Part shown: piece by piece, positions 4,101-55,281 of the stretch
How positions within the stretch are numbered: position 1 is the stretch's first letter
Layout of the letters: each line of letters opens with the position of its first letter
Assembly: GCA_050084515.1 (NCBI GenBank)
Contig: CM114271.1
Span: 2,480,001-2,544,000 of the forward strand
Direction: 5' to 3'
Length of the DNA stretch: 64,000 bases
DNA from: Blasia pusilla
Lineage: Eukaryota
Notes under the pieces: generated by a model
Told to the model about the DNA's origin: nothing
What the model saw: only the letters and a program-made list of their open reading frames with translations
Database searches by the model: none
Position numbers and translations under genes: made by a program

Positions 4101-5961
4101 TTGTAAGATTGTCAAAAGGATGTGGGCAAAGACGATGAGATGATTGAGTTGATACAAACAAGAAGGCAAGGCCAATAAGGTTTGGGGAGGGGGAGATATG
4201 AGGTAAGGGTAGAGACACAATCCCTACCCTTGTCCTTGTCTCTCATCCTCTTGCCTTAGATGGGGTTGGGGATGGAAAGGATAAGGTAGGATCAACATGG
4301 GATGGAGAGAGATGGCGCATGTGTAGGAGGAGATGACATAGGATGATCGAGAATGACATGAGGTATGTCATGACCATACGGATTATGTCGTAGGGTATAG
4401 TCTGCTAGTAGAGGCCATACCTCATGTAGGGCCGTAGTGTCTAGGTAGAGATGCGGTTTCATACATAGGGTTGGGGGTTACTCAGTTGAGGATGACTTGT
4501 CCAGTAGGGCCCGCTCTTAGGTTGGAGGATATAGTGTGGATGTTCGTGGCTTGTGGCCTATGTTGGAGGTGGAAATCTGGTGCGTGGTTGGTTGGGAAAG
4601 AAGCGCCTAGCTGAGAGCTTTCCAACGGGCTTTAGATCATCGGATTTTGTCAAGGGAGTTGGAAGTTATCAAGGATTGAAGATTCTGGTTCGTGTTCGAC
4701 GATTTTCTCATGTGGAGAGCTTGGAGTGCGGAAGCTCTGTTGAAGTTCATCCAGATTGGGTGAGAGGTTCCTATTGCTACTTGTATTGTAATCTCCTGTG
4801 AAGCTATCTGCTTGAGTGTGTGGAGCGTTACGGATTTTTGCGTGCCGGACGGAAGCGCTGTCGGATTTGCGGTTTTGGAGGTGTATGGACAGCAAGTTTG
4901 TCTGAGTTTTAGCTCGGAGTACAGAGCTCGGTTACAGCTGATTTTTTGTGGAGAGATAGCTATGGTGGTCCATTGAATTTTGGTTGAAATAGATTCAATT
5001 TTGGTTGAGGATTTGTGGAGTAATTGCTGATCGAAATTTTGCGGACTAGCTCAAGGTCTGGCTATGGTGGACAGTAGATCGGAGGGGCTGGTTGGTTGGT
5101 GATTCGTTTATTTTTGGAGATGCCTATCCCATTGGGGGCGCCCTGGTTGGGCCTCTCTCCCTAGCGAAGCATGGCAAAGCGTGGCAAACGGGGCATGTCT
5201 CGAGCATTTTGAGGCTTCGAGGCAACTCGTGGTAGCTCGGGGCGAGTGGGCGTGAGAGGCAGAGTAAGGAGCAAGAAGCAAGCAAGCAAGTTGCTTGCTT
5301 GGGCGTGAGGCAGTTTTTTCACGATTTGTGATTTGAGTGTTACATAACTGGTCACCCATCTTTGGGCTATTCTGCCTGGAAGACGCTTAACTGCTGAGTT
5401 CTTAACTATGCCAGTGTACACATTGGTGTAGCTCATTTGGTGCTGTTTGGAGATGTGTTAGGCGCTTTATGCATCTCAAGTTTTTGGTTGATGGATCTCT
5501 AGCGCATAGTACGGTGTAGCCTCTCCATGCATGTGATATTTTTAGGTGATGCGAGTCCAACTAGCACGTCATCGACCCGCGGCGAAGAAGCTATTGCGTT
5601 AGAATTGTGTGGTGGGTTCTGTGGATTCAGGGGGCGCCACGTTTGGTGGATTGTGTTACCTTGATTTCCATTTGAGATTGGAGGGTTGTCGTTGGACTTC
5701 CTATGTTTGGATCCCCTCCATCGTTGCTGCTTGCTTGCGCGCCCATTGTTAGGGTTTACGCTGATTTCCATAGTAGTGTTACTCTTGTTGTGCTACCGGT
5801 AGTGAGGCTAAAGTGATGACCAGTAGACCGTGGGAGGCTTCTTGTAGTGATGACAGGTTAGGTTGCCTACACCCATAGCTAGTAGAGCTAGAATAGAATA
5901 GCGACATCGACGTCACTTGGTTACTTAGTGGTGGTAATTTGGTGGTGGTGCGACATCGGCG

Positions 5962-7356
5962 TTGGTCATCACGGAGTTGTCTGGTGGTCTGGTTGGGGAC
6001 TGTGGTGCGGACAGTGGTGGTTTAACACAGAGTGGATTGAGGTATCGACTACCTTTTCCACTTCCGACGGTTGATGAAGAGGAGGACGAGGGTGTTCCAA
6101 ACACCGAGTCTTCTACGTTGTTATCGAGTATTGCAGCTCCATTGATTTGGGACATGGACGGGATATATGGGGCCATGAAGGGCCCACGACGATACTCGGG
6201 TGTAGTGGGCACCATTGAGTTGGAGGACTTCATGCAGGAGTTTGATACGTGGTGTGATATGCAGATGTTGCAGAACGCCACGTTGTTTACACCCTTCTTG
6301 GCTTGGAAGGGGTTGTTTCAATACTTGGAGGGACCACCCATGGATGATTACCATGAGTTTAGGAAGGACCATGTTGTTGAGATTGAGGCGTGGAGACAAT
6401 ATTGGTCTCCAGGCTATGTGTCTATCACCCATGGTGGTATTGGTAGTAGTGCTCCTACTATGCCAGCCAACCCGACGTTGAGTGGTACGAGTACGAGCCG
6501 GAGTGGGGATACTAGTGGAGGTACCAGTGGGGGTACTAGTGGAGGTACTAGTGCCCCACCATTGTTCAGCCTGCTTGTAGAGTTCTTCAAGAAGTTGAAG
6601 AAGAACTATCAGGGAGTGAAGACAGAGAAGTTGAGGAGTCTTCAGGAATTTGAGCGAAAGACTGGTGAGAGTCTTCGTGAGGCAAACACTCGTATGCGAC
6701 GCTTGATTTCAGTTACCCAGGGTGTGACTGAGGCTCAGGAAGTCCAATTTTGGTATGGGATCTTGGAAAGAGAGTTGCGCCGCAAGGTACGTGATGCTAC
6801 TCTTAGGAGTGACGATTCACCTACATTGACCCATGTGTTTGCTCTATCTGAGAAGATTAAGCTTAACATGATGAAGGAGAGAGTGGTGACATCCGCATTC
6901 AGTAGGGATACAACTACTACTTCTCGTGTTCAGCATTCCACCTCACAATCACGTAGTAGTGGTGGTGGTAGTAGTAGTGGGAGTCGTGGGGGGTACACAC
7001 GACCTCAGTCAGGTCCTAGAGGGACACTTGCGCAAAGACCATTACCTTCATTTGTTGCCCCGAAGCAAGGACAGTCATGTTGGACATGTGGAGGTGATAA
7101 TGTTAGGAGGTTTTTTCCCCAAGAGGATGGGAGACGGACTTTGGAGGATGGGCCTCACTCGGCCCCAACTCAATGTGATCATTGCGGGAGACCAGGTCAC
7201 CCTCGAGAGCGTTGCTTTGATCTTCATCCAGAGTTGAGATCAGGCCGCGGCCGTGGTGGAGTAGCTCCGAGAGGCCGAGTTGGTAGAGGTGGTAGGGGTG
7301 GTAGAGGTGGACCAGTGGTTGGAGAGCCTACGGTGGCTACCCCTACCCACCACTGA
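5962..7356 (+). CDS. Retrotransposon Gag-like ORF (464 aa) with CCHC zinc knuckle and RGG-rich tail
   Basis: CDHCGRPGHPRERC zinc knuckle, a degenerate first knuckle CWTCGG, a gag-like GESLREANTRMRRL segment and RGGRGGRGG. The true start is probably one of the internal ATGs. Confidence 0.85.
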   Translation: MVITELSGGLVGDCGADSGGLTQSGLRYRLPFPLPTVDEEEDEGVPNTESSTLLSSIAAPLIWDMDGIYGAMKGPRRYSGVVGTIELEDFMQEFDTWCDMQMLQNATLFTPFLAWKGLFQYLEGPPMDDYHEFRKDHVVEIEAWRQYWSPGYVSITHGGIGSSAPTMPANPTLSGTSTSRSGDTSGGTSGGTSGGTSAPPLFSLLVEFFKKLKKNYQGVKTEKLRSLQEFERKTGESLREANTRMRRLISVTQGVTEAQEVQFWYGILERELRRKVRDATLRSDDSPTLTHVFALSEKIKLNMMKERVVTSAFSRDTTTTSRVQHSTSQSRSSGGGSSSGSRGGYTRPQSGPRGTLAQRPLPSFVAPKQGQSCWTCGGDNVRRFFPQEDGRRTLEDGPHSAPTQCDHCGRPGHPRERCFDLHPELRSGRGRGGVAPRGRVGRGGRGGRGGPVVGEPTVATPTHH

Positions 7357-7964
7357 CAGTCACTATGGGTGCCAGATTGAGCGGTTGGAGCGTGGTTGGC
7401 TACTATGGTTGGTATCCAAAGATAGAGCAGTTCGGGAGCAAGGGCTTCCACCTCTTATGGAGGGATGATCTCTCTTATATGGTGAGTGCAAAGACCTGAG
7501 GTTGAGGCATCATTTGCGATTACAAGAGGAGCCACTCGGCGTCGAGCCACGTGGTGCTCTTGTGGAGTTGGATCCACAGGAGGGGTGAGGTTGGGAGGCG
7601 GCTAGGCTTTGTCTTTCTTGTTTTTGAGGTGCTTAGGACTCCATCCATGGTTCCTCACGCAGCCTATTGAGCCTGATGGGGGGATCGAGGCATCTACATC
7701 GCGTGTAGTAGACACGGATGCAAAGACATCGATCTTGATGTGCGGATGGCAACTTCAGTATTGGGATCCCAATTGTTTTCGGCCATAGAGCTGATGGCTT
7801 TAGGAGTTGACTTAGCTCATGTATTTTATCTAGTAGCCACGTTGTGTGAACGTGGGAGTGTTACTGCTACACGTGCTGAGGTCGATGAGGGTGTTGCGGT
7901 GGAGCGACCCTCTATGTCAGGTGTAGCATTGAGTACCACAACTACTTGGTAGGCAGCAACGGCG

Positions 7965-8470
7965 AAGATGGATGCATTACCAGCCCGACCAGCCATTGAT
8001 CGTGAGAGGCTTACACCTGGTGTATGTATGTTGGACAACCGGAGTGGGATATTCCGATTGGTGAGTCATACAGGATAGGTGTATAGACTAGATAGAGTCT
8101 TGTTAGACTCTAGTGCCCAACCTTTGATGTTGGGAAAGGCGGCATGTATTGCTTTGGGTATTCGAAGGTTAGAGCTTGAGCCTTGCCCATTCCAGATTCA
8201 AATATCACTTGGAGGAGCCAATGATAGGTCTCACTTCATGACACGGGAGAAGTTTTCTGTACAATTGAGACAAGATCATGCAACTGATAGCTCCCGGTTG
8301 GGAGTACCTGCAGTGGTCACATCAGCCGAGTCGTATGATGTACTAGTTGGAGGAGAAATATTGTACCCGATGGGTTTTCAGATGGAATACTGGACTGAGA
8401 CAGCATCTTACAGACCTGGTTGGCAGTCCGGGGATGGACGTATGAGCCAAGTTCCTGTGAGATTTATTTA
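7965..8470 (+). pseudogene. Retroviral-type aspartic protease domain of pol
   Basis: RVLLDSSAQPLMLG (LD[ST]GA motif with G>S) and SYDVLVGGEIL (ILG-type C-terminal motif), in the same frame as the downstream methyltransferase. Confidence 0.8.
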
Positions 8471-8831
8471 TGGGGCTCGACCAAGAGGGTCTTCCCCAAC
8501 GGTGTTAGCATCTGTGGCTGGTTTTAGTGGAGTAGTCACTTGGCCAGGAGACTTTTTGGAGGGTAATGTTTCTGCTATGGATTCTCCTGTGCATGAGGAG
8601 GTAAAGGAGGTCCCTAGTTTTGCAGCAGTGGCATCCTCATCGTTGGATGTGCAACTTTGGAGTTCATGCGGTGCACTACGGTAGGAGGCTGATCGCCTAG
8701 TGCATGAGGCTTGGTGTGAGGCTGTTGCACCTCACGAGGAAGAGGAGGCCCCACGGCGGATTCCTACTTCTGGTCTAGTTGGATTATTCCCTTTGGATAC
8801 TACACCCATTGCATGGCAATATCCACTGGAG

Positions 8832-9785
8832 GGCATTTGTGTGTTAGATCTCTTTGGTGGGATTAGCATTAGTTTGGCTGCAGTGTTGCAGGACGGTATT
8901 CTTGTGCGGAGATACGTGTATGTGGAGCGAGATGAGACGGCACAGAGAGTCTCATCCCGACATATCGGTCAGTTGATGTAGAGATATCATGAGTTGTTGC
9001 CGCCATCAGCTATTCGTGGGTACCAGCGTGCTTTGCCGTCACTCATTGCATTGTTGGGGGCACAGGACCTTGAGAGGGTTGATCCTGTGGATTTGGTGAT
9101 TTCTGGATGGCCATGTCAGGGTCATACACGTGCTAGTCATGGTGAGGGATTACACGACCCTAGGTCTTGATTTTTTTGGGAGATGTTACGGGTGTTACGA
9201 CATCTTCAGGTTCATCAGGCACGTGCTCCAGCTTACATTCTGGAGAATGTTCCATTGTTGGATGACACTCGGACCCGGATGATGGCGAGTGTTCATGAGG
9301 TGCGGTCTTGGATTGGACCAACGGTGTTGTTGGATGCAGCTCGAGTTGGCTCGCGTGCACATCGTCCACGCTTGTGGTGGACAAACTTGTTGCCCAGGGA
9401 GGTTCTACGTCGAGCATATGATGCAGTGCAGCGGGATCCTTGCCTTATAGTGGATAGTATCTTGGATACTGGGCAACTTTCTCAGGTGGTGAGGGTTATT
9501 GATCGGTCACCCATGGCAATGGTGAACCGTGTGGGCCAACCTAGGATGGCACTACCCACATTTGTGATTTTTCCCTCGTCATATGCCTATAGGGAAGGTG
9601 ATCCCGGGCTTGCATGGGATTCTCATGTGCGACAGTTGGTGGAGCCTAACGCTGATGAGAGAGAGAGCGTGCGATGGGATTTCCTACTAGTGTGACAGCG
9701 GTTGGTTCCATTTCTGAGGCTTCACGACGTCATGTGTTGGGTCAGGCCATGGACCTGAATTGTTTGACCTGGATTTTGAGTCTTG
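8832..9785 (+). pseudogene. DNMT3-like C5 cytosine DNA methyltransferase domain embedded in pol
   Basis: Motif I VLDLFGGI from 8841, motif IV DLVISGWPCQG (PC at 9111-9116), motif VI ILENV (ENV 9243-9251), motif VIII AHRPRLWWTN 9357-9386, motifs IX-X ERERAMGFP...RRHVLGQAMD ~9655-9755. Interrupted by stops at 8979 and 9168 and a +2 (GA) slip near 9660. Confidence 0.92.
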
Positions 9786-10036
9786 GGATGGCCGAGGAGC
9801 GTCGACTTCGAACTATGTCTATGGATCTTCCATCCCTTGTGATGAGCTCGATGGCTACCGGGACGGTAGAGACATCGGCGGGGGGCGAGGAGAATAGTAT
9901 TTTGCATCCTTGGAGTAAATGGGATGTTATGGTTGGGCATGTGGAGTTGGTTTCTCATGTTGGTGGAGGAGTTATTTGCTCAGATGATGGTGTAGCTAAG
10001 GGTGTACCATCTTGTGAAGGGGTTGCCTAGCAGCCA

Positions 10037-11150
10037 ATGGCGTCGTCCTCTCCCTCTAGTGTGCGAGTGGAGGAGACTTGGAAGCCATTACTTGGTCCCA
10101 AGCTTAGGGGAGGTGAGAAACGACGCTTGACACAATTCCTACGTGCTTATAGGAGTTGTTTTGCCTTTAGCATGAAGGAGTTGGGTGCTTTGGTTGGACC
10201 CGGTATACGGATTGATTTGGCTAGTGATTCGCCAATCTTCCGTCGTCCCTACCGATATATTGATATGGAGAGGGACCTAATTTAGAGTAGGATGTTGGAC
10301 CTTCTGGAGGTTGGATTAGTGGAGTTTTCGCATGGAGAGTATGCATCGCCCCTTTGTCATCATGCTGCTAAAAGGATGTGCATGGCAACTACACGGATAG
10401 GCGGATGTGTGGAGATTACCGTCCTATCAATCGTCAGACCAAGGCCGATAGGTATGCCATGCCTACACCTAAGGAGATCTTTGATGTGGTGGGACAGGCA
10501 AAGATTTTTAGTACTTTGGATCTTCGGGCAGGATACCATCAGTTGCCAATTCGAGAGAGTGATAAGGCCAAGACAGCATTTGGGGTGTTAACTCTCATGG
10601 CAAGGATTGTTTTTACCAGTGGAAATTCTTACCCTTTGGGTTGAAGAATGCACCTGCCGAGTTCCATAGAGTGATGGAAAGGATCCTAGCAGGGTTGGAT
10701 TTTGTTCGGTGTTACATTGATGATATCTTGGTGTTCAGTAACATAATGGAGGAGCATTAGATACATTTGCAGATTGTGTTTGAGCGGTTGAAAGCTCATG
10801 GTCTACGTTTGCATCCAGGAAAGTGTAAGTTCTTCCATGAGGATGTTGAGTACTTGGGTCATGTGATCTATCCAAGTGGTTTGGGAGTTCAGCAAGCAAA
10901 GGTGGAGGCTATTGCACTTATTCCTCGTCTGGTAGATGTGAGTAGAGTTCGGGCATTCATGGGATTGGCGAACTACTATCGGAGGTATGTGAAGGGATTT
11001 AGTGCTTTGGCAAAGCCTTTGAACCAATTGTTGAAATCACTGTGCAAGCTTACAGGAAAGCTTGCACGGTGGGCTCTTATCTTACACGAGTACGACTTCC
11101 AGGTGGTACATAGACCTGGAGTTGCCAACCTTGATGCTGATGGGTTGTGT
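10037..11150 (+). pseudogene. Gypsy reverse transcriptase, frameshifted, RNase H core missing
   Basis: PIFRRPYR, RMCGDYRPIN, FSTLDLRAGYHQL, PFGLKNAP, catalytic YIDD at 10713-10724, KCKF..EDVEYLGH, VRAFMGLANYYRRYV, then directly LTGKLARWALILHEYDF. Confidence 0.93.
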
Positions 11151-11519
11151 AGGAACCCATGTACTAGCCAAGAGGATGCAACTGGGGCTAGATGGCATGG
11201 CAAGGTTGATGAGGAGATGGCGCCAGGTTGGCATGCATCCGCCTTTTAATGTTGGTTAGGGGTGGACTCTAGTATGGAGGACCACATGACATCTTACTCT
11301 AGTCAGAGGGTAGATGGCCAGCCTTCAGATCGTAAGGTTGGAGATGATGGTACGAATCAGCGTGATATTCATGATGAAGCGTTGGTGTTGGAGTTCCTAC
11401 AAAGCACTAGAGTGCCAGGAATAGTGAGTGCCAAGGAGCAAGACCGTGTTCTTCAACGTGCTAAGAGGTATTGATTGGAGGGAACACATATTCTCCGTGT
11501 GTGGGAGGATGGTAGAGTA

Positions 11520-12791
11520 CGAGTAGGGCTGCATTTGGCTCAGAGAGAGCGCATTGTGTGACATGCCCATGAGGAGTTGGGACATTTTGGGGTAAAGCGT
11601 ACGTATAGCTTACTCCTTGGTCAGTATTGGTGGCGTGGCATGCATACTCAAGTGCAATAGTTGGTGTCACGGTATATGGTTTGTGACCGGGTGAGGGCAT
11701 CATTCAATGCCCCTACACACGGTTACACCCCTTGCCTATTATGGGGTTGGGTTACCGTTGGAGTGTGGACTTTGCGGGACCGTTACCGTTGACTGTACGA
11801 CATCATCGATATGTGTTGGTGATGGTGGAGCACTTCTCCAAGTGGATTGAGTTGGTGGCATTACCTGACAAGGCAAGTGAGGGAACGGCGTATGCGTTTC
11901 TTGATAGACAGCTTAGTCTTTGGTGCACCAGCTGAAGTGTTGACCGACCAGGGTACAGAGTTTCAGGTCTTGTGTGACAAGGCATTGATTGATCTTCGGA
12001 CCACGTCTCGAGATCATTGAGAGGCGGATGGTTCGGCTGAGCGTGTGATTCAGACGCTGAAGAGGGCATTGTGCAAGTATGGCCTACAGAAGGGGCATCT
12101 TGGAGATTGGGATATTCAGTTGCCATGGTTAGCCATGGGGTATAGGTTCAGTCGCCAAGCATCCTTGGCTTCCTTCTCACCTTATTTTCTGTTATACGAC
12201 CGAGATCCATACTTGCCCGCAACAATTCGTCGGGAGTCTAGTGAGGTGGTGAACCTTGATGACCCAGAGATGTGGATGAGAGTGTGTTCTGAGCGGGCAG
12301 AGCTCTTTCGGAGAGTTTTGTCAACAGTCTTTGAGAATCTTGCCATTGCTCAACACAGGGATACGTTGCGGTATGCGACCATTCAGGGTGGAGGTTATCG
12401 ACCATCGATTTGTAGGTTCCATGTGGGGGACTATGTCTATTTGCAGCAGATTTCACAAACAATGTTGGATGTGACGGCATGCCGCACTATTTTACGAGTG
12501 CGCGAGGTGTTACCTTCTGGAGTTCTCATGTTGGAGGGTCGTGATGGAGTTGTTTGGAAGGACCATGTGCGTAATTGTGCGCCATGTCATCTTTCAAATG
12601 TGGATGGTAATGTTGACCCAAGCTTAGCCATGATACGTGCTAGCTTGAGGTGCATGTTGTGTGGGTCTGCTGGTAACGCAGCCCGTATGTTGGTGTGTGA
12701 TCGGTGTTCTAGGGGTTGGCACATGATGTGTTTGACTACACGTATGGATGTTGTTCCTACTGGAAGGTGGGTTTGTCCTCGATGTACTTAG
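11520..12791 (+). pseudogene. Gypsy integrase (zinc-binding region, DDE core) with C-terminal PHD finger
   Basis: HEELGHFGVKRT...YWWRGM, WSVDFAGPLP, VLTDQGTEF, AERVIQTLKRAL, FSPYFLLY. C-terminal CMLC-x11-CDRC-x4-H-x2-C-x14-CPRC at 12651-12785. Confidence 0.9.
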
Positions 12792-12954
12792 GAGAGGTAG
12801 ATGACTTGATCTTTGCATGATATGGATTACAGATGTGCGACTAACGATGGGGCAACCTAGCACCTGGCCTTCTGATTCACGCACCCACGAAGGTGTATAG
12901 CATGTAGTAGATGTATAGGGCTACCTGGGAGTTAGAGGGACCTAACCGCCAGTT

Positions 12955-13190
12955 AGGGGGGGCGAGTTGTGGTACACTTTTGTTTTTGTATGCTCTTGTC
13001 TATGTTATGTATGTATGTGAGTATGGTATGTCAGCAATGTATGTTGTATGACGATGTGGATCGCACGACAGGTAGGAACTAGTCAACGTGGGTGGAGGAT
13101 AGTGGGATAGGTACCGGGAAGGATTGGTAGTGGATTGGTTGGGGACGGGTATAGGAAGGAAGAAGACACGAAAGGCACTCGAGGGTCCCA
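12955..13190 (+). repeat. Polypurine tract and putative 3' LTR of Gypsy element 1
   Basis: AGGGGGGGCGAG at 12955-12966, then TG at 12968. Candidate CA end at 13190 or 13198. The sequence just before the tract is homologous to 49021-49066. Confidence 0.6.
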
Positions 13191-14850: not shown

Positions 14851-15240
14851 TGCGAGTAGAGTAGAGTAGATTTTTAGTCCACGGGAAGCTGATTTGGCTT
14901 ATGGGACCCCTTCCACATATGTGAAATTGACATTGCATCCGACGGGCACCTTCACAACTAGATTTTGGGTTCTCACTCAAGAGATTTGGTCTTTGTTTTT
15001 CTTTGTTTTTCTTTGTGAAGGCTTGGAATTTTATCCAGATTTTTAACCTGGGAGCATAGTCAAGGCACACAAGGCGTTATCTCTCTCGAACATGGACCAT
15101 CCATGCCCTAGGTAGGGGACGCCACTGCCCTGGGGTTGAGACCGCCCCCCACTGTCCAAGGGGAGAGTTGAACCCAAGACCTCTTCAAGAGGACCTTACG
15201 TTTGTTCAGCTAACCTCTTGGTCATCTACCGCTTGGGAGG
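14851..15240 (-). mobile_element. tRNA-derived SINE, full-length copy
   Basis: On the minus strand: A-box-like TGACCAAGAGG (15214-15224), B-box-like GGGTTCAACTCTCC (15162-15175) and a (TCTAC)n tail at 14854-14870. Flanked by near-identical 11-mers GAGTAGGTTAG (14840-14850) and GAGTAGGCTAG (15241-15251). A second copy lies at 27260-27572. Confidence 0.75.
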
Positions 15241-16928: not shown

Positions 16929-18409
16929 TTTTTAAGATCACGTTAAGGATAGGATTTTGGTATATCACTATTTTCTCGTGTCTTGAAATTTGGATGGAAG
17001 CTAAAGAAATTGCATCTCTTAGACTCAATTACTAAAAAGGATGAACTTTTGATTCGTCATAAGAGACTATAATTTTAGATTTAACTTTTTTATCCAATTT
17101 TTTTTGTTAATTATAATTTCACACAGGTCTTTATTTCATGGCACATTACTCCAAAGTACCTTCAACCTTAAATTGAATATTCCCCATTTTACACAACTAC
17201 AAATTGAATTCTATGGAGAAGAATGACATTCTTATAGCATTTGGTATATATCCAATAATTTATAGTAGATTCGGCTTTGAATTCTATAGGTAAGTGTCCA
17301 ATATTTTAGACTTCAAAGATGATATCACCTTATACTATCTACCCACTAAAAGGATTAGATGTTTATCCAAAAAATATTTGTCGTGTGCAGTCAATTTCAT
17401 CCCATCTGAATATCCTTATGAAAATATCAATTCAAAATTTACCAAAGAATCGTTTTCTAGTTTTGACTGCAATAACTTGAAGTGCGCTTACAATAGACTT
17501 GCGAATGGGATTTCCAATATGGCTCACAAATAGATTGCAAATTATGGCTATCAAGAGTCATACTTTACGACTATAGGGCCTCTTACTTGAGTTACAAGAG
17601 ACTCAAAAGTGGAATACTTGGATTTGAAAATTGGAAATTATCTTATAATTGCTTATAAAAAGCACTTCTTAGTGGCCTAGGGTCCTTATTTCATGCTTGT
17701 GATCTTGCTTGGTGACAAGGGAGATAGAGAGTACCTTGGAGATTCAAAAGGGGAAAAATAATTATCTCTAATGAGAGTGTAATGAGATGCAAGAGGTTTT
17801 ATTTTCATTGGTTCTTTCGGCAAGAGGTGTCTACTCGCCTCCTGTATGTGCACCAAATGAAATTCAAATGATACTTCAAACTATGAATATTGTGTTGGGC
17901 TTGATAGTAAGGACAAGATTGGAAGAATTCAAACCCAAGTCGAGCACACAAAAAAGTTAAAAAGGAGGAAGTTGAAATGAAGAAGTATTGTGCTAAGGTA
18001 CGCACAATATGGATGGTAGAGATGATGATGGATTTAGGCCTAAGGAAGAATAAAAATCAAGGCATTTTTTTATCATGAGTGATAAAAAAATTGAGTACTA
18101 TATGAATGTAAGGTACCTTAGAGACTTCAATGATTGCACACATAAATTATCCATTGTATTGTAACAAAAATGTGTTAAACTCAAAATGCATTGTGTTATG
18201 TGTGTCATTCTACATTGTGACCCAAAATGTCCCTTTTTTGCGTAGCGTGTCAACTCCTAGGGATGAGTGTTATAACAGACTCCGACCTAAAAAGAGAAGG
18301 GTGATTAGTGGAGAAATAATGCTCCACTTGTAAGGGAAAGATGAAGGGTTCATAAATCTCTCTATCTTCTTGTTGGTGGAATTGTGTGTCCATCCTAACA
18401 CACGTTTAT

Positions 18410-27225: not shown

Positions 27226-27259
<34 letters not shown>

Positions 27260-27266
<7 letters not shown>

Positions 27267-27572
27267 TTTTTAGTCCACGGGAAGCCGATCTGGCTTATGG
27301 GACCCCTTCCACATGTGTGAAATTGACATCGCATGTGACACGCACCTTCACATCTAGATTTGGGGTTCTCACTGAGGAGATTTGGTTTTGTTTTTTTTTT
27401 GGTGAAGGCGTGGAATTTTATCCAAATTTTTAACCCCGGAGCATAGTCAAGGCACACACATGAAAGGCACACAAGGCGTGCTCTCTCTCGAACATGGACC
27501 ATCCATGCCCTAGGTAGGGGACGCCACTGCCCTGGGGTTGAGACCGCCCCCCATTGTCCAAGGGGAGAGTTG
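27260..27572 (-). mobile_element. 5'-truncated copy of the SINE, inserted in a (GA)n microsatellite
   Basis: Near-identical to 14863-15170. It stops within the B-box and is flanked by (GA)n at 27229-27262 and 27573-27587. Confidence 0.8.
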
Positions 27573-28384: not shown

Positions 28385-31300
28385 AATATATTCCCTTCGT
28401 CTACCCGAAAATGATTTCCATAAGCCTTCATTCTTTTGTAGGATTGATAAATATGAGATGGTGGAACTGCTAGTTTTAATACCAAAGCGTCTACCTCTTT
28501 ACCTTCCTCAACCCACTCCCGCACCTTGGGTCTTAGCCATGATGCAAAAGTCTCCTTTGTCCTTCCCTCTACCTTGAATAAGGTGCCAGGTTTCAAGAAG
28601 CACTTGCAAATAAGTATTTTCAAGTTGCATCACAATTCTACTAGACGATTGAAACTATTTTCAGGTGTAAGGACAAGAAAACACATGGATTTGAAAAGAA
28701 GGAAAATTAGTACTTACTCCCATAATTGGCTCATGCACGAGGTGTTTTCCAACACATATTGATGTGCACTTAAAAGAAGAGTGTGCGATAGAGTACTCTT
28801 CACTCTTCCTCCTTCTAGGACCTCTCCAAGAACACCCTCCTCTTTTGTTGCATCCCACACTCGTGTTTGGACAACTTTGAAGCCCTCCATGTATTCAGTG
28901 ATGATGCCCAATGCCTCATCCAAGATATAGCCTTCGGCTATGCATCCTTCTGGTCTAGCATGAGATCTTACGTAGCCCTTTAATACACCCAAGTACCTCT
29001 CGATTGGATACATCCAACGATAGGTTGATGGACCACAAATATCCAACTCATGAACTAAATGGACCATCAAGTGTGTCATGACATCAAAGAAAGATGGAGG
29101 AAAATGGATCTCCATGAGACATAATGTCTCTGCTACATCTTCTTTCAATGTTGGTAGAGTGCGAGGGTCCCAAGTTTTCACACATAACTTCTGGAATATC
29201 CTAGACATCCTCATGTTAGTTGTTCTCATTGGAGCCTTCATCAATCCTCTAACAAAATACGGCAACAATTGTTGCATGAAAATATGGAGATCATGGGATT
29301 TCAGGCTTCCTATTGTCTTCCTTAGAATATGTTTCTACAATGATCCTCCATATCCACTTGGCACTTTCAATGTAGCCACCCTACTTGTGAACACCTTCAT
29401 TTCTTCAGGCGTAAGGACATAATCTGCTCTAGGCTTTACCTTCGCCGATTCCCTCGATGGATGGGGTTGTAACCATAAGTGTTTTTTGATTCCTCTAGCT
29501 TCTAGATCAAGTCTTACTTGAATAGAATCCTTATTCTTCAACCCAAATAAGGTTTTGAGGGTGTTATCTGAAACATTATTCTCACAATGCATAAGGTCCA
29601 ACGTATGTCGTATTAATAGATCCTAAAATCAAAAAAACAATACATGAGAGAGCAAAAGTTTATTATGGTTGATTTGTTGAAACATATAAATACAATAAAC
29701 TTACAATTTCGGGTGACTGATGTAAAATAAGTTTAGATCATTTCAGCCCTAAAACTCAGAGTTGGGAGATCAAATTACTTACCTTCCAATAGGGAAGATC
29801 AAACAAGACACTCCTCCTTCCAATCCCATACTTTTTGTAAGGGTCTTGTTCTTGAATCTCTCCCCTCTTTACTTTTCCCCTTGACGTCCCATCAAAAATG
29901 ATCTTTGCTTCTGCCCATTGAAGGACTTGGCTACTTGTTACATGAGTTTCCCTTCTCTCAACACTACGGTTGAAGTGTTTAGCCATATTGATTTGTCGAT
30001 AAGGGTGGTTACTCCGCATATATCGTCTATGCCCCTGGTATGTATGCTTGTGACATGGTTTTGAATAATACGACTCAATATTAGGTCCACAAACTACACA
30101 AGCTAATCTACCCTTCGTGGCTTGGCCTAATACAACACCCAATCCCGGGTAATCATTAATAGTCCAGATAAGCATTGCCCTTAGATTAAAACAAGAATTA
30201 TCTTTCTTTGCACTCTGGTCAAAGATAGGAACTCCAACCCATAGTTGTTGTAGCTCCTCAATAAGAGGTGCTAAGTAGACATCTAGATTATGACTACCCA
30301 CAGACTCTTTCCCTGGAATGATAAGAGCGAGCGGCAAAAAGAACTTCTTTGTGCACAACCAAGGGGGTAAGTTATAGTTCACTAGAACAACCGGCCAAGT
30401 AGACCATACTGCGTTCTTATCATTGAATGGATTAACACCATCTAAAGCTAAGCCCAATCTGATATTCCTATGTTCATTGTTGAACTCTGGCCATGTGACA
30501 TCTATATGCTGCCATTGTTTTGAATCTCCCATGTGCCAAACCATACCATCAGAAGATTTGTTCTTTGATGTCCATGTCATCAGCTTAGAAATACTCCTAC
30601 ACCTATACATTCGTTTTAATCTAGGAATAATAGGGAAATGACGAAGCATCTTGTTTGGAAGTTTACTTTTTCCAACTTCTCGATAGCGAGGTGCATGACA
30701 TTTGGTACATAGCTCCAAGTCCTTATAGTTATCCCTAAACAACATGTATCCGTTTGGACAAGCATAGATCTGAATATAATTCACTCCTAGCTTGGTGATT
30801 AACCCCTTGGCAACATAGGGATTTCTAGGAACGTTGTTACCTTCAGGTAGAACTTGAGAACCTAAGAATTTTAATAGTTCATCAACAGCCACATTGGGAA
30901 CACTATGTGCACTGCAAATGTTTAAAAGTATCATAGTAAATGTGATCTTACTAGTCTTAGCACCAAGAAAAAGAGGTTGACATGCCATCTTTAAGACTTC
31001 TTCATCGAATCCCCAGTCAATTGGACTAGAAGCTTGGTCACTCTCGTTTATTCCAATTTCAAATGGTTGCTCCTCTTCATCAAGAAGAGTATCAACCATG
31101 GAATCTTCAAAGCATCCAAATGCTTCGTTGATCATTCTATGAACTTCAAAGTTCTTATCAAGATCATCAGATGCAGATTCTTGAGGGACTGATGTAGGAT
31201 GTATCATACCACTATTCTTCAATTTAACTCTTTGGTCAGCCCTCTCTTTCCATTCCTCGTCAGAGGAGTGATATTCTTGAATATTTCTTGAGATACTATG

Positions 31301-31486
31301 TCCAGGATTTCTCTTATGGATCATAAGATGTTTCTCAATGATTGATATAAGCCTCAATCGACTTCCCTTACACTCAGTGCATGGACATTTCAGCTTGCCT
31401 AAACCAAGTTTTTTGGCTTGCTCTTTCTCTCTATGCCATAAATTTTCATCGTGACTAGCGATTCGATAGGGATCACTCAAATCCAA
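28385..31486 (-). pseudogene. CACTA TnpD-like transposase (Transposase_21, DUF4218, start of DUF4216), spliced
   Basis: RNIRLGLALDGVNPF, STWPVVLVNYNLPPWLC, INDYPG. GT-AG intron 29623-29782 joins LPYWK|DLLIRHTLDLMHCENN. In-frame TAG at 29335-29337, then LKSHD, FPPSFFDVMTHL, WMYPIERY, ARPEGCIAEGY. Breaks off after AYGNHFRV. Confidence 0.92.
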
Positions 31487-39869: not shown

Positions 39870-40525
39870 CTTCCGAAGGTGCGCACTGCACTCCACTGTT
39901 TCCCTCTGTCATTCATTCTCATACCTCGCGCGATTGCGTCTACCGATCCTCCATTGTCATCCGCATTCCCATACCAAGGTGCGCTCCATTGCTTTCCTCG
40001 GTCTCCCATTATCATCCAAAGGTGCGCGCGATTGCGTCTTCCGAACCTCCAGTCCGAACCAAAGGTACACTCCATCGCTTCCCTCCGTTCGGTATTCCAT
40101 TATAATCCAAAGGTGCGCGCGATTTCCTCTCCCGAACTTCCATTCGCATCCACATTCGCGATCAATTGGTTCCTTCCATAATACATTATAATCCAAATGT
40201 GTGCGCAATTGCTTCTCCGGGTCCTCCACTCTCATCCGCAGATTCCAATTTCTTCCTTTGGTATTCATTCCATTATAATTCAAAGTTGCGCGATTACTTC
40301 TTCCGGTCCTCCATTCTCATCCACATTCGCGCTCCCTCCAGTGCTTTTTTCGGTATTGCATCATATCATAATCCAAACTTGCGCGCGTTTGCTTCTTTCG
40401 GTCCTCCGGAGATTCTCGTCCATAGATTCCAGAGGTGCGCTCCATTGCTTCTCTCGGCCTTCCATAGTAATCCAATCGTGCGCGTGATTGCTCTTGCGGT
40501 CCACCATTCTTATCCACAAATGCGC
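39870..40525. repeat. Degenerate minisatellite, about 7 units of ~90 bp
   Basis: Core CCATTATAATCCAAAGGTGCGCGCGATTGCTTCTTCCGGTCCTCCATTCTCATCC recurs near 40007, 40097, 40184, 40271, 40364 and 40462, with a partial unit near 39915. Confidence 0.8.
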
Positions 40526-42338: not shown

Positions 42339-42461
42339 GGGGGAATGCCCCCTTCTTCCTTTTCTGGTCCTGTTGTGGCCTTCAGGTTTTGACTCTTTGA
42401 GTCCCCCTCTTTTGTACTTCCGATGGGTTTTCCATCACTCGTTTTTATCGAAGTGCATCTT
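42339..42461 (+). repeat. ~122-bp dispersed repeat, copy 1
   Basis: Near-identical to 55159-55281. Confidence 0.9.
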
Positions 42462-44659: not shown

Positions 44660-47600
44660 CGCATTCCCTCATAGCGGAGGGAGGGTGGATGTGGCTTGAT
44701 ATGCCGATGGAGATTCGAGAGTGGAGTTGGCTATATGAGCCTTTTTACTCATATTTTACATGAGAAAGATGTTGAGACACATGAGCCAATGCCGACCAGT
44801 AGTCGCATCCGCTCATAACAAGTTCGATGTCGATGTGTTGTTCGAGGAGATTGTCGTGCCGCGGTGGTTTCCACGTCACATCGAGGAGTCAATTTTGATC
44901 GTGCAATACAGTGATGGCATGCATGTTCATGTTACCAGTTTGAGTCTCTTTTCTTGCACTTGTCTCGTGTCATTGAGGGTGGTGGGTATCGGGTAGAGCT
45001 TAGGCTAGATAGGTATGGCGATGGTGACGAGTGTAGATTTCTTAAATGTGTAGCATGTTTGTGGATATAGGGTGGTCGCCCAAGTAGGGATGGCATGTCA
45101 TCAGCTTAGATAAGCTAGTTTAGAAGGCTCAAGGTGAGCATGAGTGTTGAGAGTGCGTGAGGCCAGGTGTGTCGTCACTTGATTATCATTAGCGTAGGTG
45201 AGCTAGGGAAGAGTGTGGGAGACTCTCAGTGAGTGTGAGTGCTTGAGCAGGTGAGGAAGGGTTCAAAAGAATGGGTTAGTGGAGTGACATGGAGTGGAGT
45301 GAGATACTCAGAGGTTTTGAGTGAGGAGATATTTCGACTCTCATCCGTAGTTGGATCGTCATCACTGGACAACACGTTTGGTGATGAGATTGCAGACAGA
45401 GAGAGTATCATGTAGAGGGAGGTGGATGACATGGGCCACTAGGGCATCTCTCATTTCTCGGGTGCGCTAGGCACCATTGATCTAGATGGCTTCATCCAAG
45501 AGTTTGACACATGGTGCAACTTCTTGGAGATATGAGCCCCTACGCGGTTCAACCCTTTCGTGCAAGGCTCGGCTAGTGCCGAAATTCTTTGTAAAGCCTG
45601 CCGACAAATTTTTAGAATTTCTGAATGGATTTGAAGTTAACCGGGAAGACAACCCGTGAGAAAAATCAAGTGATTGGAAACCAACTCTTTAGTACGAAAA
45701 TTGATGGCAGTTTTGAAGAAAGTGTGCGGGAGGGTCCGGAAATATTATCCAAATAACTTTCCAAACGTTATATATTTTCCGAGTAAGAAGGAGTCTACCG
45801 GATGGAGCCTTACGTGTTTCCATGGGACTAGGGTTAGTGCGAGGGTAATAGGTTACTTTAACTAGTTCAAGACCTTATCCACATAAGTAATGGAGTAAAA
45901 AACTGGGCACCAGACGAATTTCTTGGAGGAGACGTTCTAGAAAAAATGGGAGACTTGCCATTTTCTCCAGGAAATGCCGAGCAATCATCTACCGAATTAA
46001 CTCTCCAAACGGCATATATTTTCCTAGTAAGAAGGAGTCTGCCAGATGGTGCCTTACGTATTTCCATGGGACTAGGGTTGGTGCGAGGTAGGTTACTTTA
46101 ACTTCTTTGAGACCTTATCTATAGAATTAATGGAGTAAAAAACCTAGCACTAGACGAATGTCTTGGAGGAGATGTTGTGAGAAAACGGGAGACTTTCTAT
46201 TTTCCCCAGGAAACGTCGAGCATTCATCTAGGTGTTGGGAATAAGTGGAAGAGGCAAACATAACCAAGGGAACAAGAGACTAGATCGATGAGGAGTCGGG
46301 ATAGAGTTGGTTGCTTTTAGAGAATACCTAAATGGTTACCCATGTGCCAGCAAAAAACTGGATAGATGAAAAATACTAGCCGAGCCCTGCTTTAATGGTG
46401 TAGAAGGGTTTATTCCAGCATTTAGAGGGTCCTTTGATAGATAACTACATGGAGTTATGGTCTTTACACTCGCTAGAGATCGATACGTGGAGGAGGTATT
46501 GGGCTCTAGGGTATGTATCCACTAGTGGCCGTGAGGTGTATGATGGGATAGTGAGAGGAGAGAGAACTACACTAGGGAGATGGAGATGATGGTAGTGAGG
46601 GCCGTGAGTTAATAGAGACCTCTAGTGCTAGAGCACCACCCAATTTCACTACAATAGTTGAGGAGGGGCTACAAGGCGTGTAGACCGACAAGCTGAAAAG
46701 TCTACACGATTTTCAACGAAGATCGGGTAAGAGTCTAAGAGAGGCGTTCACATGCATGTATCGAATGATCATTGCTACATATGGAGTAATTGAGGTGCAA
46801 TCAGTCCAGTATTGGTATGTGGTTATGGACTAGGAGCTATGGAGGAGAGTCTGAGATGTGATGTTGCTTCACATGACGAAGCCCACATTGAAGGTGATCT
46901 TCGAGTTGTTTGAGTGGTTTGATCTCAATATGAATGAGGAGCAAGCGGTGACCACAAGATTCTCATGAGAGCTAGTAGATCCACATATGTCAATAGCCCC
47001 ACAGGTACCCCAATGTGCACTAGTACAACAGGAGCACGCGGGCATGCCCAGAGAACATAGTGGGTATCATGAGTCTATGAGGCAACAACCCGTATCGACA
47101 TATGTTGGCCAGTAGGGACAAAAAATGGTCCGTTGGATATGTGGTGGGCCCCATAGGTAGAGGGACTGTCCACAACATGGTAGAGGGACGAGGGGCCGAG
47201 GGGGCCTCTGATTTCTCAGGAGCCACCTAGGATGCCCCTACCTCAATTGTAGTGTAACCATTGTCATCACTATGGTCATACTAGGGATCCGGATATGTGT
47301 TTTGATCTTCACGGAGAGCTTCATGTAGAGGTAGGTTGAGGGTCTGGGGACAAGAAAGTTGGTGGAGATAAAGGAGTTGATGATTGTGGTGGTAGGGTTT
47401 CACCACCAATTAGAGGAGATGGAAGACGTGCATCCGATGCACCGCTCCTCACTCGCATAGATCGGTTGGAGTAGAAAATTGTTGCCATGATGATGATGTA
47501 GCCATTGACAGGTATGGAGCCGAGAGTAGCTAGTGTGGCTCCAGCCTCGTTTGTCGTATTAGGATACGGGGTAGTATTATGAGGGTTTGAAGTTTATGTG

Positions 47601-49810
47601 CAATGCAACTCAAGTAGAGGCTACTATGGTGGTGACTCAGGGTGCTACGAGAGTGGCCGAACCATCAAGAGGTGGGATGGAGATAGACCTAGAGGAGGTA
47701 ACTGATGGGTGACAGGCCAGGGCTTCCCAATTGTTTACATTGTCGGAGGCATTGCATACACCATTGATGATGCCTAGACGACAACCGGTGCCCACAAGTG
47801 GGGTAGGTGTATTGATGTCACAAGGGGTTTGAGAGATGACTCGTATGCCACCTTAGGTGGAGCCCGTGTCCACATTGTTGGAGATAGCCATTAGGCTGAG
47901 CCAGACTCCTTTGTTTTTTTTATGGAGTTGGCGGCGATGGAAGTTGGGCTAGTAGAGGAGTTCCAGTTGGCCGCCATGTTGTGTGATCATGGAGAGGTGA
48001 GTGCCTCTCGTTCAAAGATCGTAAACCTGCCCTTAGAGCAAGTATAGTGTATGACCCATTGCACGTTCTACTTGATTCAAGAGCGCAACCTTTGATGTTA
48101 GGAAAGGTGGCATGTTTGGCATTGGGGTTACAAAAAAGTGGCATTGAGCCTTGTCCCTTTCAGATATAGACCTCAATTGGGGGCATATCACTCCCGCAAC
48201 ACATAAGAGTTAATTGTTAGACTCCAGCTAGAACGTGAGTCAGATAGTGCGATGGTGTGCACTCGGGAAATTACGACACCGGCAGAGTCGTATGATGTCA
48301 CTTTTGATGTGTTGGAAGGAATTAAAATATTGTCATTTTTGTACCCCATTGGTTTCATCCTTGATTTTGGGGAGAAGACTGTTTCTTATCAGCCAAGATG
48401 GCGATCAGATGATGGACGGGTGGGCCATTAACTGGTGCAATTTGGTCGTAGTGGTGGTCGATCACCTAATGATAAGATGATTAGTGACCATGTTGGAAGC
48501 ACTCATATGTGATGTTAGTTTGACCAGGAGAGTTGTTGGAGGGGACCATCAATGGGGAGGATACCTTGGTAGTGGACAGTCCCACGGAGGGACAAGTTAG
48601 GGTGGGTGTCTCTTCCCATGCTGCAGAGACCTCTTTATCGTTGTTGGGTACGAGCGTTGAGTTGCAGAGGAGTGTAGATGACCTTGTGAGTTAGGCATGG
48701 AGTCGAGCCTGTGTCTTGGGGCAGAAAAGTCAAGTGATAGTCGTGCTCTTGGAGTGGAGACTTGATATCTTCAGATACCACACGTGTTATGTGGCAGCGT
48801 CTGTAGGAGGATGCAAGAGTGTTAGATATCTTCGGAGGGATCAACATAGTGCATAGTTGTAGTGTTGCAAGATGACATCCAGACACATCGATAGCTCTAG
48901 GTAGAGATAGATGAGATGGATATGTGGATGAGTGTGTGTTGGAAGATATGGCGGATATGATAGCACTAACCTGCTTGATGTGTATATAGTAGTAGATCAT
49001 GTCAGGTAGATGTGATGTCTACTATCTAGAGTTAGAAGGGTCCAATTGCTAGCTAGGGGGCGATTGTGTGCTCTTAGGATATATGCGTGAGTATATTTTA
49101 TTTATGAGTGGAACGACCCGTGTGTTGGGAAGATTGGTATCATGTGGTGTGTAGATGTGATCAATGATGTGGATTGTGTAGCGATGTGTAAGTGTTCGAT
49201 AGTTGAGACATCTTAGTTAGCCAACATGTAGAGTTATACCGCATCGATGACGTAGAGGATCAAGTTAGATCAACGAGATGTTCGGGTGTAATTTCATCTT
49301 GAGATGTCGGATAAGGTTGGCGACATATCCGTTACATTGGGAACATCATTTTTGAGGATTTCCTTATTTTGTTCTTAGTTGTCATGTGACTCGTTGACTA
49401 AGTTAATGTTCATCCAGTAACCTAAGCACGTAGGTTATCGTTTGGAAGCTCTTTTTGGGGAATGAACCTTTTGGCTCTTTCCAAGTCTATAAGAGAGGAA
49501 GAGATGGCTTTCCCAAGCCGTCCATCTTTCTCATGTTGGGCCTTAGGAGCACATCTCTTGCTTTGTGTAGAAGGAACTAGGGTGCTAGCATCTGGATTTC
49601 CTCATAGCGAAGGGTGGATGTGGTTCGATGTAGATTCGAGAATGGAGTTGGCTATGTGAGCTATTTTTACTCATGTTTTGTTTTGTGATCTCGATGTATA
49701 TGCATGAGTTTATTTCGATTAAGAGTGGATTGACCATAGTGTTGGGAAGATCAATGTTATGTGGTGTGTAGATATAACTAGCGATGTTGATTGTGTAACA
49801 ATGTATATAC
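44660..49810 (+). mobile_element. Second, older, internally deleted member of the methyltransferase-bearing Gypsy family
   Basis: Colinear homology to element 1: GTIDLDGFIQEFDTWC (~45470), KGLFQHLEGP (~46405), DKLKSLHDFQR (~46690), CFDLH (~47300), VLLDSRAQPLMLGK (~48065), VLDIFGGI (48819-48842), then a jump to the 3' region and PPT AGGGGGCGA (49055-49063). A direct repeat at 44664-44757 and 49597-49680 may be LTR remnants. Confidence 0.85.
45563..46389. mobile_element. 827-bp non-autonomous hAT-type element interrupting gag of Gypsy copy 2
   Basis: 15-bp TIR CAAGGCTCGGCTAGT / ACTAGCCGAGCCCTG (14/15). Flanks CTTTCGTG and CTTTAATG (6/8). Gag homology resumes across the insertion. Internal 244-bp-period tandem duplication at 45754-46230. 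Confidence 0.85.
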
Positions 49811-55158: not shown

Positions 55159-55281
55159 GGGGGAATGCCCCCTTCTTCCTTTTCTGGTCTTGTTGTGGCC
55201 TTCAGGTTTTGACTCTTTGAGTCCCCATCTTTTGTACTTCCCATGGGTTTTCCATCACTCGTTTTTATCGAAATGCATCTT
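55159..55281 (+). repeat. ~122-bp dispersed repeat, copy 2
   Basis: Near-identical to 42339-42461. Confidence 0.9.

Follow-up and report, generated by a model that had tools for sequence, protein, structure and literature searches.

A degenerate Ty3/gypsy-type retrotransposon of Blasia pusilla with a predicted DNMT3-type methyltransferase domain ahead of a conserved stop codon

INTRODUCTION

Cytosine methylation is the main weapon of hosts against transposons, so that a transposon encoding a de novo methyltransferase of its own is paradoxical. The closest described system of this kind is KnitGypsy-Dnmt3 from the charophyte Klebsormidium nitens (de Mendoza et al. 2018, Nat Commun 9:1341, PMC5890265), whose published description gives it an intronless, non-rearranged Dnmt3-type domain within a gypsy polyprotein in a streptophyte host. 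According to the legend of Fig. 4c of that paper, KnitGypsy-Dnmt3 has the repeat structure of DIRS and the domains of Gypsy (PMC5890265). The same source reports that the methyltransferase domains of a second group, SymbioDIRS-Dnmt3 of Symbiodinium, methylate CG de novo in yeast (PMC5890265). Later texts cite only "streptophytes (Gypsy-DNMT3)" and dinoflagellates, and our literature search, with supplements and the Marchantia genome paper outside its scope, found no description of land-plant members.

Here we describe an element at positions 4366-13070 (+ strand) of a 64,000-nt stretch of the Blasia pusilla genome (GenBank assembly GCA_050084515.1, contig CM114271.1, positions 2,480,001 to 2,544,000), which we call the window. 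An earlier note, made from the letters of this sequence, had proposed a gypsy retrotransposon with a cytosine methyltransferase (MTase) inside pol and had named DNMT-bearing retrotransposons as precedent; that precedent is real (PMC5890265). We consider it likely that the window holds a dead copy from a bryophyte branch of Gypsy-DNMT3 elements whose working copies make and package the MTase and methylate their own cDNA.

The window family, hosted by bryophytes to judge from the names of its relatives, was likened to the algal KnitGypsy-Dnmt3 by its published description. Both carry an intronless, non-rearranged Dnmt3-type domain in a gypsy polyprotein, and the DIRS-like repeats of KnitGypsy-Dnmt3 match the A..B-A-B layout found in the bryophyte family (PMC5890265). 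The stop codon between MTase and reverse transcriptase (RT), the 4-bp target duplications and the two integrated forms of the bryophyte family go unmentioned in the KnitGypsy-Dnmt3 text, and the term "PHD", which would describe the finger at the end of the bryophyte integrase, occurs 0 times in the main text of that paper (PMC5890265). This rare arrangement was published in 2018 for a freshwater streptophyte alga, and some of the anatomy of the bryophyte family is apparently undescribed.

RESULTS AND DISCUSSION

Domain map and state of the window element

The element encodes gag, protease, a C5-MTase, RT, an RNase H remnant, integrase and a C-terminal PHD finger, in this order (Table 1), and is one dead copy of a Ty3/gypsy-type retrotransposon. 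The features by which Ty3/gypsy elements are recognized, namely a gag with a CCHC knuckle, the order protease, RT, RNase H and integrase, and a DDE integrase, were found across the window and its relatives. The zinc knuckle of the window gag (CX2CX4HX4C) lies at 7174-7215; Pfam gave no match on the window gag piece, and zf-CCHC was matched in a relative, P0018. The active-site motif of the protease is degraded (LLDSSA, 8100-8117, versus LLDSGA in the Marchantia relative P0163). Pfam also gave no match on the window protease piece, and P0018 has a weak match to Asp_protease_2 (E 2.8e-4, 22 bits, below the cut-off of 24.3).

Pairwise alignment with a relative (L001) places RT indels near 10368, 10578 and 10961. 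RT_RNaseH scores 114.8 bits in a further relative (P0165), and on either side of 11039-11045 in the window the RNA reads from other copies differ in sequence. Profile checks suggested by the earlier note for RT and PHD were positive (PF00078 reaches 45 bits on the best piece; for PF00628, see Table 1). The check for the integrase core succeeded in part: PF00665 (rve) matches 11687-11935 at 26.6 bits, as a fragment and below the cut-off of 32.6, and relatives have Pfam matches to both Integrase_H2C2 and rve.

Table 1. Coordinates of the element and of a second relative in the window
Feature	Position	Strand	Evidence or remark
Left target-site duplication, GGTA	4362..4365	+	Identical 4-mer at 13071-13074
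5' terminal segment A, start TGTCATGACC	4366..4540	+	Family repeat A; depth jump, read junctions
Long untranslated leader	4541..5937	+	Without long + strand open reading frame; repeated like rest of element
gag	5938..7356	+	472-aa open frame; homologous to N-terminal part of Marchantia P0162/P0163
Aspartic protease region	8079..8684	+	Aligns with P0163 from residue 629
DNMT3-like C5 cytosine MTase domain (predicted)	8832..9785	+	PF00145, PDB matches, motifs
C-terminal tail of first open reading frame	9786..10027	+	Aligns with last 80 residues of P0163
Conserved in-frame stop, TAG	10028..10030	+	Separates gag-protease-MTase from RT-RNase H-integrase-PHD
RT, frameshifted, YIDD 10713-10724	10031..11038	+	PF00078 on three pieces: 28, 45, 25 bits
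RNase H end	11039..11249	+	About 350 nt of domain missing at 11038/11039 (alignment with L001)
Integrase, H..H..C..C zinc-binding region and DDE core, frameshifted	11475..12100	+	PF00665
PHD finger, integrase C-terminus	12651..12785	+	PF00628, E 5.3e-10, 39.6 bits
Stop of second open reading frame	12789-12791	+	
Polypurine tract TAGGGGGGGCGA	12953..12964	+	Directly 5' of repeat B, in window and all 10 loci printed
3' terminal segment B, end GCACGACA	12965..13070	+	80% identity over 115 nt to L007 repeat B
Right target-site duplication, GGTA	13071..13074	+	
Second relative, more decayed and truncated (gag, protease, first MTase-region residues)	45400..48850	+	tblastn

In a read-through translation (with X at stops), 8079-9695 forms a single frame that holds the protease and MTase motifs I-VIII and is broken by three stops (TAG 8682-8684, TAG 8979-8981 and TGA 9168-9170). 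Motifs IX-X follow in the next frame (9659-10030), with a 2-nt insertion near 9657 in the pairwise alignment with L001. The two stops (8979 and 9168) and one 2-bp slip that the earlier note had read within 8832-9785 are thus exact. The motifs are LDLFGG (I, 8844-8861), GWPCQG (IV, 9105-9122), ILENV (VI, 9237-9251), SRAHRPRLWW (VIII, 9351-9380), ERERAMGF (IX, 9659-9682) and LGQAMD (X, 9737-9754). PF00145 matches the read-through MTase (E 2.1e-7, 31.1 bits, cut-off 22), in agreement with the C5-MTase proposed earlier, while single stop-to-stop pieces gave no MTase match in Pfam; the best solved relatives of the read-through sequence are DNMT3A/B (1.8e-6).

Aligned to the uninterrupted P0163, the window read-through is gap-free, with 72% identity over 529 aa, and the window stops correspond to sense positions. 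The C-terminal piece also aligns with P0163, and a common stop ends both. The alignment bears out the proposal that the MTase is intronless and in the protease frame, and Pfam found no BAH or chromo domain, as the earlier note had stated. Identity of the window MTase is about 74% whether it is compared with the Marchantia, the Calypogeia or the Sphagnum-like versions.

Differences between the window and other genomic copies (run X1) are mostly positions with A or T in the window and G or C in the others (A>G 115 and T>C 82, against G>A 50 and C>T 46), a pattern that fits decay of the window copy by C-to-T transitions. The sense strand of the element is also G+T-rich and C-poor (A 0.22, C 0.19, G 0.31, T 0.29), as are those of loci L005, L007, L016 and L058 (C 0.17, G 0.28-0.29). 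This skew is a property of the family, not confined to the window copy. Observed/expected ratios in the element and these loci are 0.53-0.63 for CpG and 1.4-1.5 for CpA, and the flanks are AT-rich and unskewed. The window as a whole is AT-rich (30-45% G+C) save for a few blocks of about 48-55% G+C with a strong excess of G over C on the + strand, one of which is 4366-13070.

Position of the methyltransferase in the coding plan

The stop codon about 80 codons 3' of the MTase is conserved in all 54 aligned copies (TAG in 36, TAA in 18). The next codon is CAR in 53/54 copies, an ATG stands at codon +3 in 52/54, and the frame is the same on both sides, with RT in frame after the stop, in 52/54. 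Gene models from Marchantia and Calypogeia terminate at this stop, where P0162, P0163 and P0166 end. As read from these alignments, the first open reading frame (ORF1) is composed of Gag, protease and a DNMT3-type catalytic domain, and the second (ORF2), after the UAG or UAA, of RT, RNase H, integrase and PHD finger.

On this plan the MTase is predicted to be the last domain of the gag-protease ORF. The earlier claim of a gypsy element carrying an MTase holds, whereas its placement "inside pol" does not, since the MTase ends the gag-protease ORF, ahead of a conserved stop before RT. Likewise, the MTase shares the protease frame, as expected of a polyprotein product, but the window copy is dead and makes nothing. 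Because the MTase closes the gag-protease ORF, the RT-RNase H-integrase-PHD part would need read-through or re-initiation, and Gag-like amounts of MTase are predicted. Leaky stops in plant viruses follow the pattern UAG-CAR-YYA, with which the stop context of the window (UAG CAG CCA) agrees and that of the loci (UAG CAA CCC) agrees in part.

Enzyme class

A family profile built from 40 MTase domain sequences and searched against the PDB ranked DNMT3A (4.3e-27) and DNMT3B (1.8e-25) first, followed by DRM (5e-15 to 1e-11) and M.HhaI (1e-9), and no DNMT1 or CMT chain was found at or below 0.01. The match to DNMT3A comprises three collinear stretches, which cover motifs I, IV-VIII and IX-X. For the fold, the uninterrupted L001 domain was modelled with AlphaFold2 (predicted local distance difference test score 94.4, predicted template modeling [TM] score 0.93) and searched with Foldseek, and all 33 rows listed (ranks 1-50) were DNMT3A, 3B or 3C (best match: E 1.6e-21, TM 0.71/0.81). 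A two-copy complex prediction for the same domain, run without an alignment, scored 0.00 (mark 0.32), which counts neither for nor against a homodimer. In the family, motifs I, IV, VI, VIII, IX and X follow in linear order with the catalytic Cys, and PF00145 scores 35.6 and 35.1 bits on the Marchantia sequences P0163 and P0165.

The family MTase is accordingly classed as DNMT3-type by PDB profile ranking and fold, and the DNMT3-like class named in the earlier note was recovered by both approaches. It resembles animal DNMT3A/3B/3C in profile, fold, linear order of motifs I-X and a short target-recognition region, and shares with animal DNMT3 the motif VIII block AHRxR..W.NL. It differs in that identity is about 21-23% and in that the family MTase sits in a retrotransposon polyprotein.

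Plant DRM, from the same DNMT3/DRM superfamily, is the second-best PDB class. DRM enzymes are known to be circularly permuted and, consistent with this, the DRM stretch that matches the N-terminal motifs of the family is found close to the C-terminus of the DRM chain (about residues 221-352 of 357). A DRM identity was rejected: the permuted order (VI-X before I-IV) was not seen, and motifs I to X match DNMT3A collinearly, which excludes the permutation, as the earlier note had argued from the motif order.

Distribution of the family and its wider relatives

A HMMER search with the window MTase returned 2012 representative proteins at E up to 1e-3, of which 150 were at up to 1e-30, and many of these relatives are polyproteins of 1000-3400 aa; a word-indexed search returned 36 longer proteins. 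Named relatives come from Marchantia polymorpha (many paralogues), Calypogeia fissa, Sphagnum troendelagicum and S. fallax. Among them, P0163 is an uninterrupted 1278-aa Marchantia model with gag, protease and MTase, from a cluster of 18 member sequences. When metagenome contigs were scanned with P0163, 206 of 239 candidate stretches encoded a relative, and 80 of the 206 loci were kept; these are about 77% identical in DNA to 5964-13070 of the window. None of the relatives found was named K. nitens, and the top non-bryophyte matches were unnamed metagenome proteins.

The MTase occupies the same place in the Marchantia, Calypogeia and Sphagnum proteins and in the metagenome loci, so confinement to the window locus, which the earlier note had named as a reason to abandon its proposal, was not observed. 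A secondary insertion of the MTase with its own target duplication was also rejected, as the domain is collinear in all copies. The MTase is a feature of the family and not peculiar to the window locus.

Two layouts exist among the wider relatives. The MTase lies upstream of RT in bryophytes and unnamed metagenome groups, as illustrated by P0018, which joins CCHC, Asp_protease_2 (weak), DNA_methylase, RVT_1, RT_RNaseH, Integrase_H2C2 and rve in one ORF. In 141 proteins, including those of the chlorophytes Monoraphidium, Haematococcus and Chromochloris, the MTase lies instead between RNase H and integrase. The chlorophyte elements have gypsy-type RT, RNase H and integrase, a terminal PHD finger and an MTase 31-39% identical to that of L001, and differ from the bryophyte branch in MTase position. 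In a quick tree built by maximum likelihood from 106 of the 246 domains (retroelement domains only, taking all rows with the MTase upstream, certain or doubtful, all named rows and every third of the rest), the two layouts fell on opposite sides of one branch (Shimodaira-Hasegawa-like approximate likelihood ratio test 97), with one long-branch exception.

PHD fingers are equally widespread, with PF00628 in 108 of 120 listed relatives and PF00385 also present in only one of the 120 (P0397). The family thereby resembles chromoviruses, in which a chromatin reader is likewise fused at the integrase C-terminus, although the reader is a chromodomain there and a PHD finger here. The nearest solved PHDs to that of the window are those of KMT2C/D, CHD4, DPF2/3, ATXR5, KDM5, PHF21A, UHRF1 and AIRE. 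Most of these read unmodified H3 tails and, by analogy, a role of the window PHD as a reader of unmodified H3 tails is a lead to follow.

Selection and transcription

Selection was assessed as the ratio of nonsynonymous to synonymous substitution (dN/dS, Nei-Gojobori) on DNA copies aligned to uninterrupted reference frames, with two out-of-frame readings as controls. Between the window and the loci, the MTase core had the lowest ratio of the segments tested (0.21; 61 pairs, range 0.15-0.29; controls 0.73 and 1.18), followed by integrase-PHD (0.25; controls 0.73 and 1.07) and gag-protease (0.38; controls 0.74 and 0.77). Constraint was weaker in the ORF1 tail (0.54; controls 0.97 and 1.16), and RT was left out of the comparison as the window piece covers <85% of the reference. 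By this measure, the MTase was at least as constrained as the integrase during the divergence of the two lineages. The earlier note had named an MTase ratio near 1 as grounds against its proposal; the observed 0.21, versus 0.25 for integrase-PHD, is far from that value. The KnitGypsy-Dnmt3 domain is reported with Ka/Ks below 0.2 (PMC5890265), compared with 0.21 in the window family, pointing to purifying selection in both.

The family is highly repeated in DNA of the same organism, with read depth rising from 4.8 to about 54,000 at the 4366 boundary. In two RNA-seq runs of the same species, 3929 and 3836 reads mapped across 4366-13105, nearly always with the first mate on the - strand. Identity to the window reached 99% or more in just 26 and 28 of them, indicating that the RNA comes from other copies and not from the window copy. 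Some RNA reads of related copies skip from 11325 to 12317 (16 and 28 reads, in which 7 other letters stand at the junction) and others from 6239 to 12400 (4 and 2 reads), and the skip ends are not GT..AG. These reads may reflect internally deleted copies that are transcribed, or processing.

Terminal repeats and mode of integration

No long terminal repeats (LTRs) were found in the window copy by a repeat search, a blastn self-comparison or a word-7 comparison of both ends. In place of two identical LTRs, the family carries split direct repeats: related loci have segment A at the 5' end and either B-nn-A-B or B only at the 3' end. The window copy, with its single B, is of the A..B form, which is why it has no LTRs. 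In L007, for example, A1 (8511-8847) and A2 (17264-17600) are 91% identical and B1 (17145-17259) and B2 (17600-17714) 94%.

Both ends were clearly defined in 12 copies, the window and 11 loci. Five loci (L007, L016, L022, L030 and L067) have the A..B-A-B form, and six loci and the window have A..B only; in L050 repeats are present and the start is unclear. L007 and L030 lie on different contigs with the same flanks and the same target duplication (CATA), and are probably one genomic site sampled twice, to be counted once. All 12 copies start with TGTCATGACC, allowing for point changes, and end in ..ACA, giving TG..CA termini. The 4-bp target duplication is perfect (4/4) in 10 of the 12 and 3/4 in the remaining two, compared with 13 of 2180 offset comparisons in the control.

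The homology of the window copy with the loci stops at 13070-13074. In RNA and DNA records, other copies have 13061/13071 joined to 4366, and the start sequence of segment A recurs in the related loci. The 3' limit of segment A (4540) was set from the loose end of reads, and blastn found no match between the A segments of the window and L007, which are too diverged. B starts directly after the polypurine tract, which is conserved, and A2 abuts B2, whereas B1 and A2 are two variable bases apart within a near-palindrome, GACA-nn-TGTC. In the same organism, the B|A junction was found in RNA (85 reads in one run, with first mates 4 on + and 81 on -, and 120 in the other) and in DNA (10 contigs in one run and 1 in another). 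By eye, no tRNA-type (TGG) primer-binding site was recognized after A in the relatives.

Split direct repeats of the form A1..B1-A2-B2 are characteristic of DIRS elements, and the window family shares this layout with DIRS/Ngaro/PAT. These elements, however, use a tyrosine recombinase and make no target-site duplication, whereas the window family has a DDE integrase, TG..CA ends and 4-bp duplications; no tyrosine recombinase was found in the family, in which rve and Integrase_H2C2 are present. The TG..CA ends and 4-bp duplication identify integration as the predicted work of the DDE integrase. On one reading, the functional LTR would be B-nn-A, and integration would open a circular or concatemeric form at the palindrome; on another, A..B copies would arise by recombination between B1 and B2.

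Proposed function and alternative explanations

Working copies of the family would, on the reading we prefer, translate ORF1 in Gag amounts, such that the MTase is made with, and probably packaged within, a Gag-protease-MTase precursor. RT, RNase H, integrase and PHD finger would be made when the stop is occasionally read through, or when translation restarts at the ATG two codons on. After reverse transcription, the MTase may methylate the new cDNA of the element or its pre-integration complex, and the PHD finger of the integrase could read the tails of histone H3 where the element inserts. Each new copy would then arrive with 5-methylcytosine, and might do less harm to the host or be hidden from other defences.

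Several observations weigh against this proposal. The window copy itself is broken: three premature stops fall from the end of the protease through the MTase, the reading frame is shifted, and RNase H lacks about 350 nt. An uninterrupted ORF1 was present in 0/80 metagenome loci, in which the longest open piece is 545 aa. The selection signal between lineages stems from one deep branch, window versus loci, so its 61 pairs do not count as independent. When the 61-62 metagenome copies are compared with one another, the in-frame ratio of the MTase core (0.58) is not below its controls (0.46 and 0.54), and within the metagenome host the copies show only neutral decay. Motif IV is PCQ in the family and PCN in DNMT3A/B; neither PWWP nor ADD was matched by Pfam in ORF1 of the window and P0163; and the assignment to DNMT3 is one of profile and fold. 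The strand of the RNA, taken to be sense, follows from library convention. The Klebsormidium Gypsy-Dnmt3 domain gave no methylation in yeast (PMC5890265), a negative that its authors call inconclusive, as human DNMT3B failed in the same test (PMC5890265). Enzyme activity of Gypsy-DNMT3 domains is a prediction from sequence, and packaging, the cDNA substrate and the benefit to the element are what we infer.

The alternative that best survives, although we regard it as unlikely, is that the MTase is retained for another job, such as methylating the RNA of the element, exerting an effect in trans on the host chromatin near the insertion, or binding DNA or nucleosomes as a module whose catalysis has ceased to matter. 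Neither KnitGypsy-Dnmt3 nor SymbioLINE-Dnmt methylated DNA in yeast, and for the LINE case the authors raise RNA methylation (PMC5890265). Placement in the gag-protease ORF, which would yield Gag-like amounts beyond the needs of a catalyst, also suits such a role. Against it stands the retention of the catalytic motifs (FGG, PCQ with its Cys, ENV, RxR and the IX-X block) in uninterrupted relatives. In the 40-sequence alignment, columns that are invariant or 90% conserved hold the Cys, the glutamate of ENV and the arginines of motif VIII; DNA-bound DNMT3A/B are matched in fold over nearly the whole catalytic domain; and no tested segment has a lower dN/dS than the MTase core.

A second possibility, that some members are domesticated host gag-protease-MTase genes and the source of both the purifying selection and the RNA, appears more improbable still. 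Several uninterrupted Marchantia gag-protease-MTase models (P0162, P0163) do stop before RT, and RNA of the family was detected. That stop is nonetheless the ORF boundary of the family, found in 54/54 decayed copies with RT in frame after it; Marchantia has many near-identical paralogues (the cluster of 18 around P0163), as expected of a repeat; and RNA reads also cover RT, integrase, PHD and the B|A junction.

A chance or local origin, by capture of a host DNMT3 fragment in one copy or by insertion of a retrotransposon into a host gene, has in its favour only that the window copy is degenerate and without LTRs, and it can be dismissed as refuted by the same placement in Marchantia, Calypogeia and Sphagnum proteins and 62 aligned DNA copies, by the position of the MTase inside a unit bounded by target duplications and, in P0163, in one uninterrupted ORF with gag and protease, and by purifying selection on the MTase between lineages.

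Other features of the window

The second, older relative of the element (Table 1) shows 36-59% identity to the first copy in gag, 58% over 53 aa in the protease and 52% over 29 aa in the stretch preceding motif I (48762-48848; tblastn). It is nested in an element bounded by 123-nt repeats (42339-42461 and 55159-55281, 96.7% identical). Direct repeats at 14854-15170 and 27252-27572, 86% identical and about 12.4 kb apart, are probably the LTRs of an unrelated old LTR retrotransposon.

CACTA-type DNA transposon genes occupy 28714-31522 on the - strand (Transposase_21/tnp2, 29756-31522, 221.8 bits; DUF4218, 28714-29334, 130.3 bits). Tandem repeats of about 85-91 nt (copies 72-84% identical) lie at 39970-40500 in an otherwise unannotated stretch, and an exon of a plant plasma-membrane H+-ATPase (P-type ATPase) at 62081-62524 (+) is 96% identical to many land-plant proteins, including those of Marchantia, and so points to a land-plant host while being too conserved to single one out.

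Implications

A broader view, which we hold to be doubtful as a whole, is that of a Viridiplantae-wide gypsy clade with its own writer and reader of chromatin marks, in whose bryophyte branch an MTase made in Gag amounts ahead of a leaky stop is packaged and pre-silences insertions by methylating the new cDNA, and integration proceeds through GACA-nn-TGTC from circular or concatemeric DNA. If it were true, integration at the palindromic junction inside a functional LTR would explain how split repeats coexist with a DDE integrase, a replication style that, to our knowledge, has not been described for Ty3/gypsy elements. The uninterrupted Marchantia copies would then make both the writer-reader and the integration model testable.

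For annotation, the family matters in that its Marchantia gene models are already public, yet unnamed as transposon genes: they carry the labels "hypothetical protein" or "DNA (cytosine-5-)-methyltransferase" and may be mistaken for host DNMT3 genes when the methylation machinery of plants is surveyed. A transposon with a methyltransferase of its own has been a paradox since 2018: the only Gypsy-type example assayed showed no activity, and its algal host is hard to work with. Land-plant members move the question to a tractable system, with uninterrupted ORF1 models in Marchantia and family RNA in the organism of the window. There, the MTase ahead of the stop, the integrase PHD finger and the DIRS-like repeats with integrase-type ends yield falsifiable hypotheses on dose, targeting and replication.

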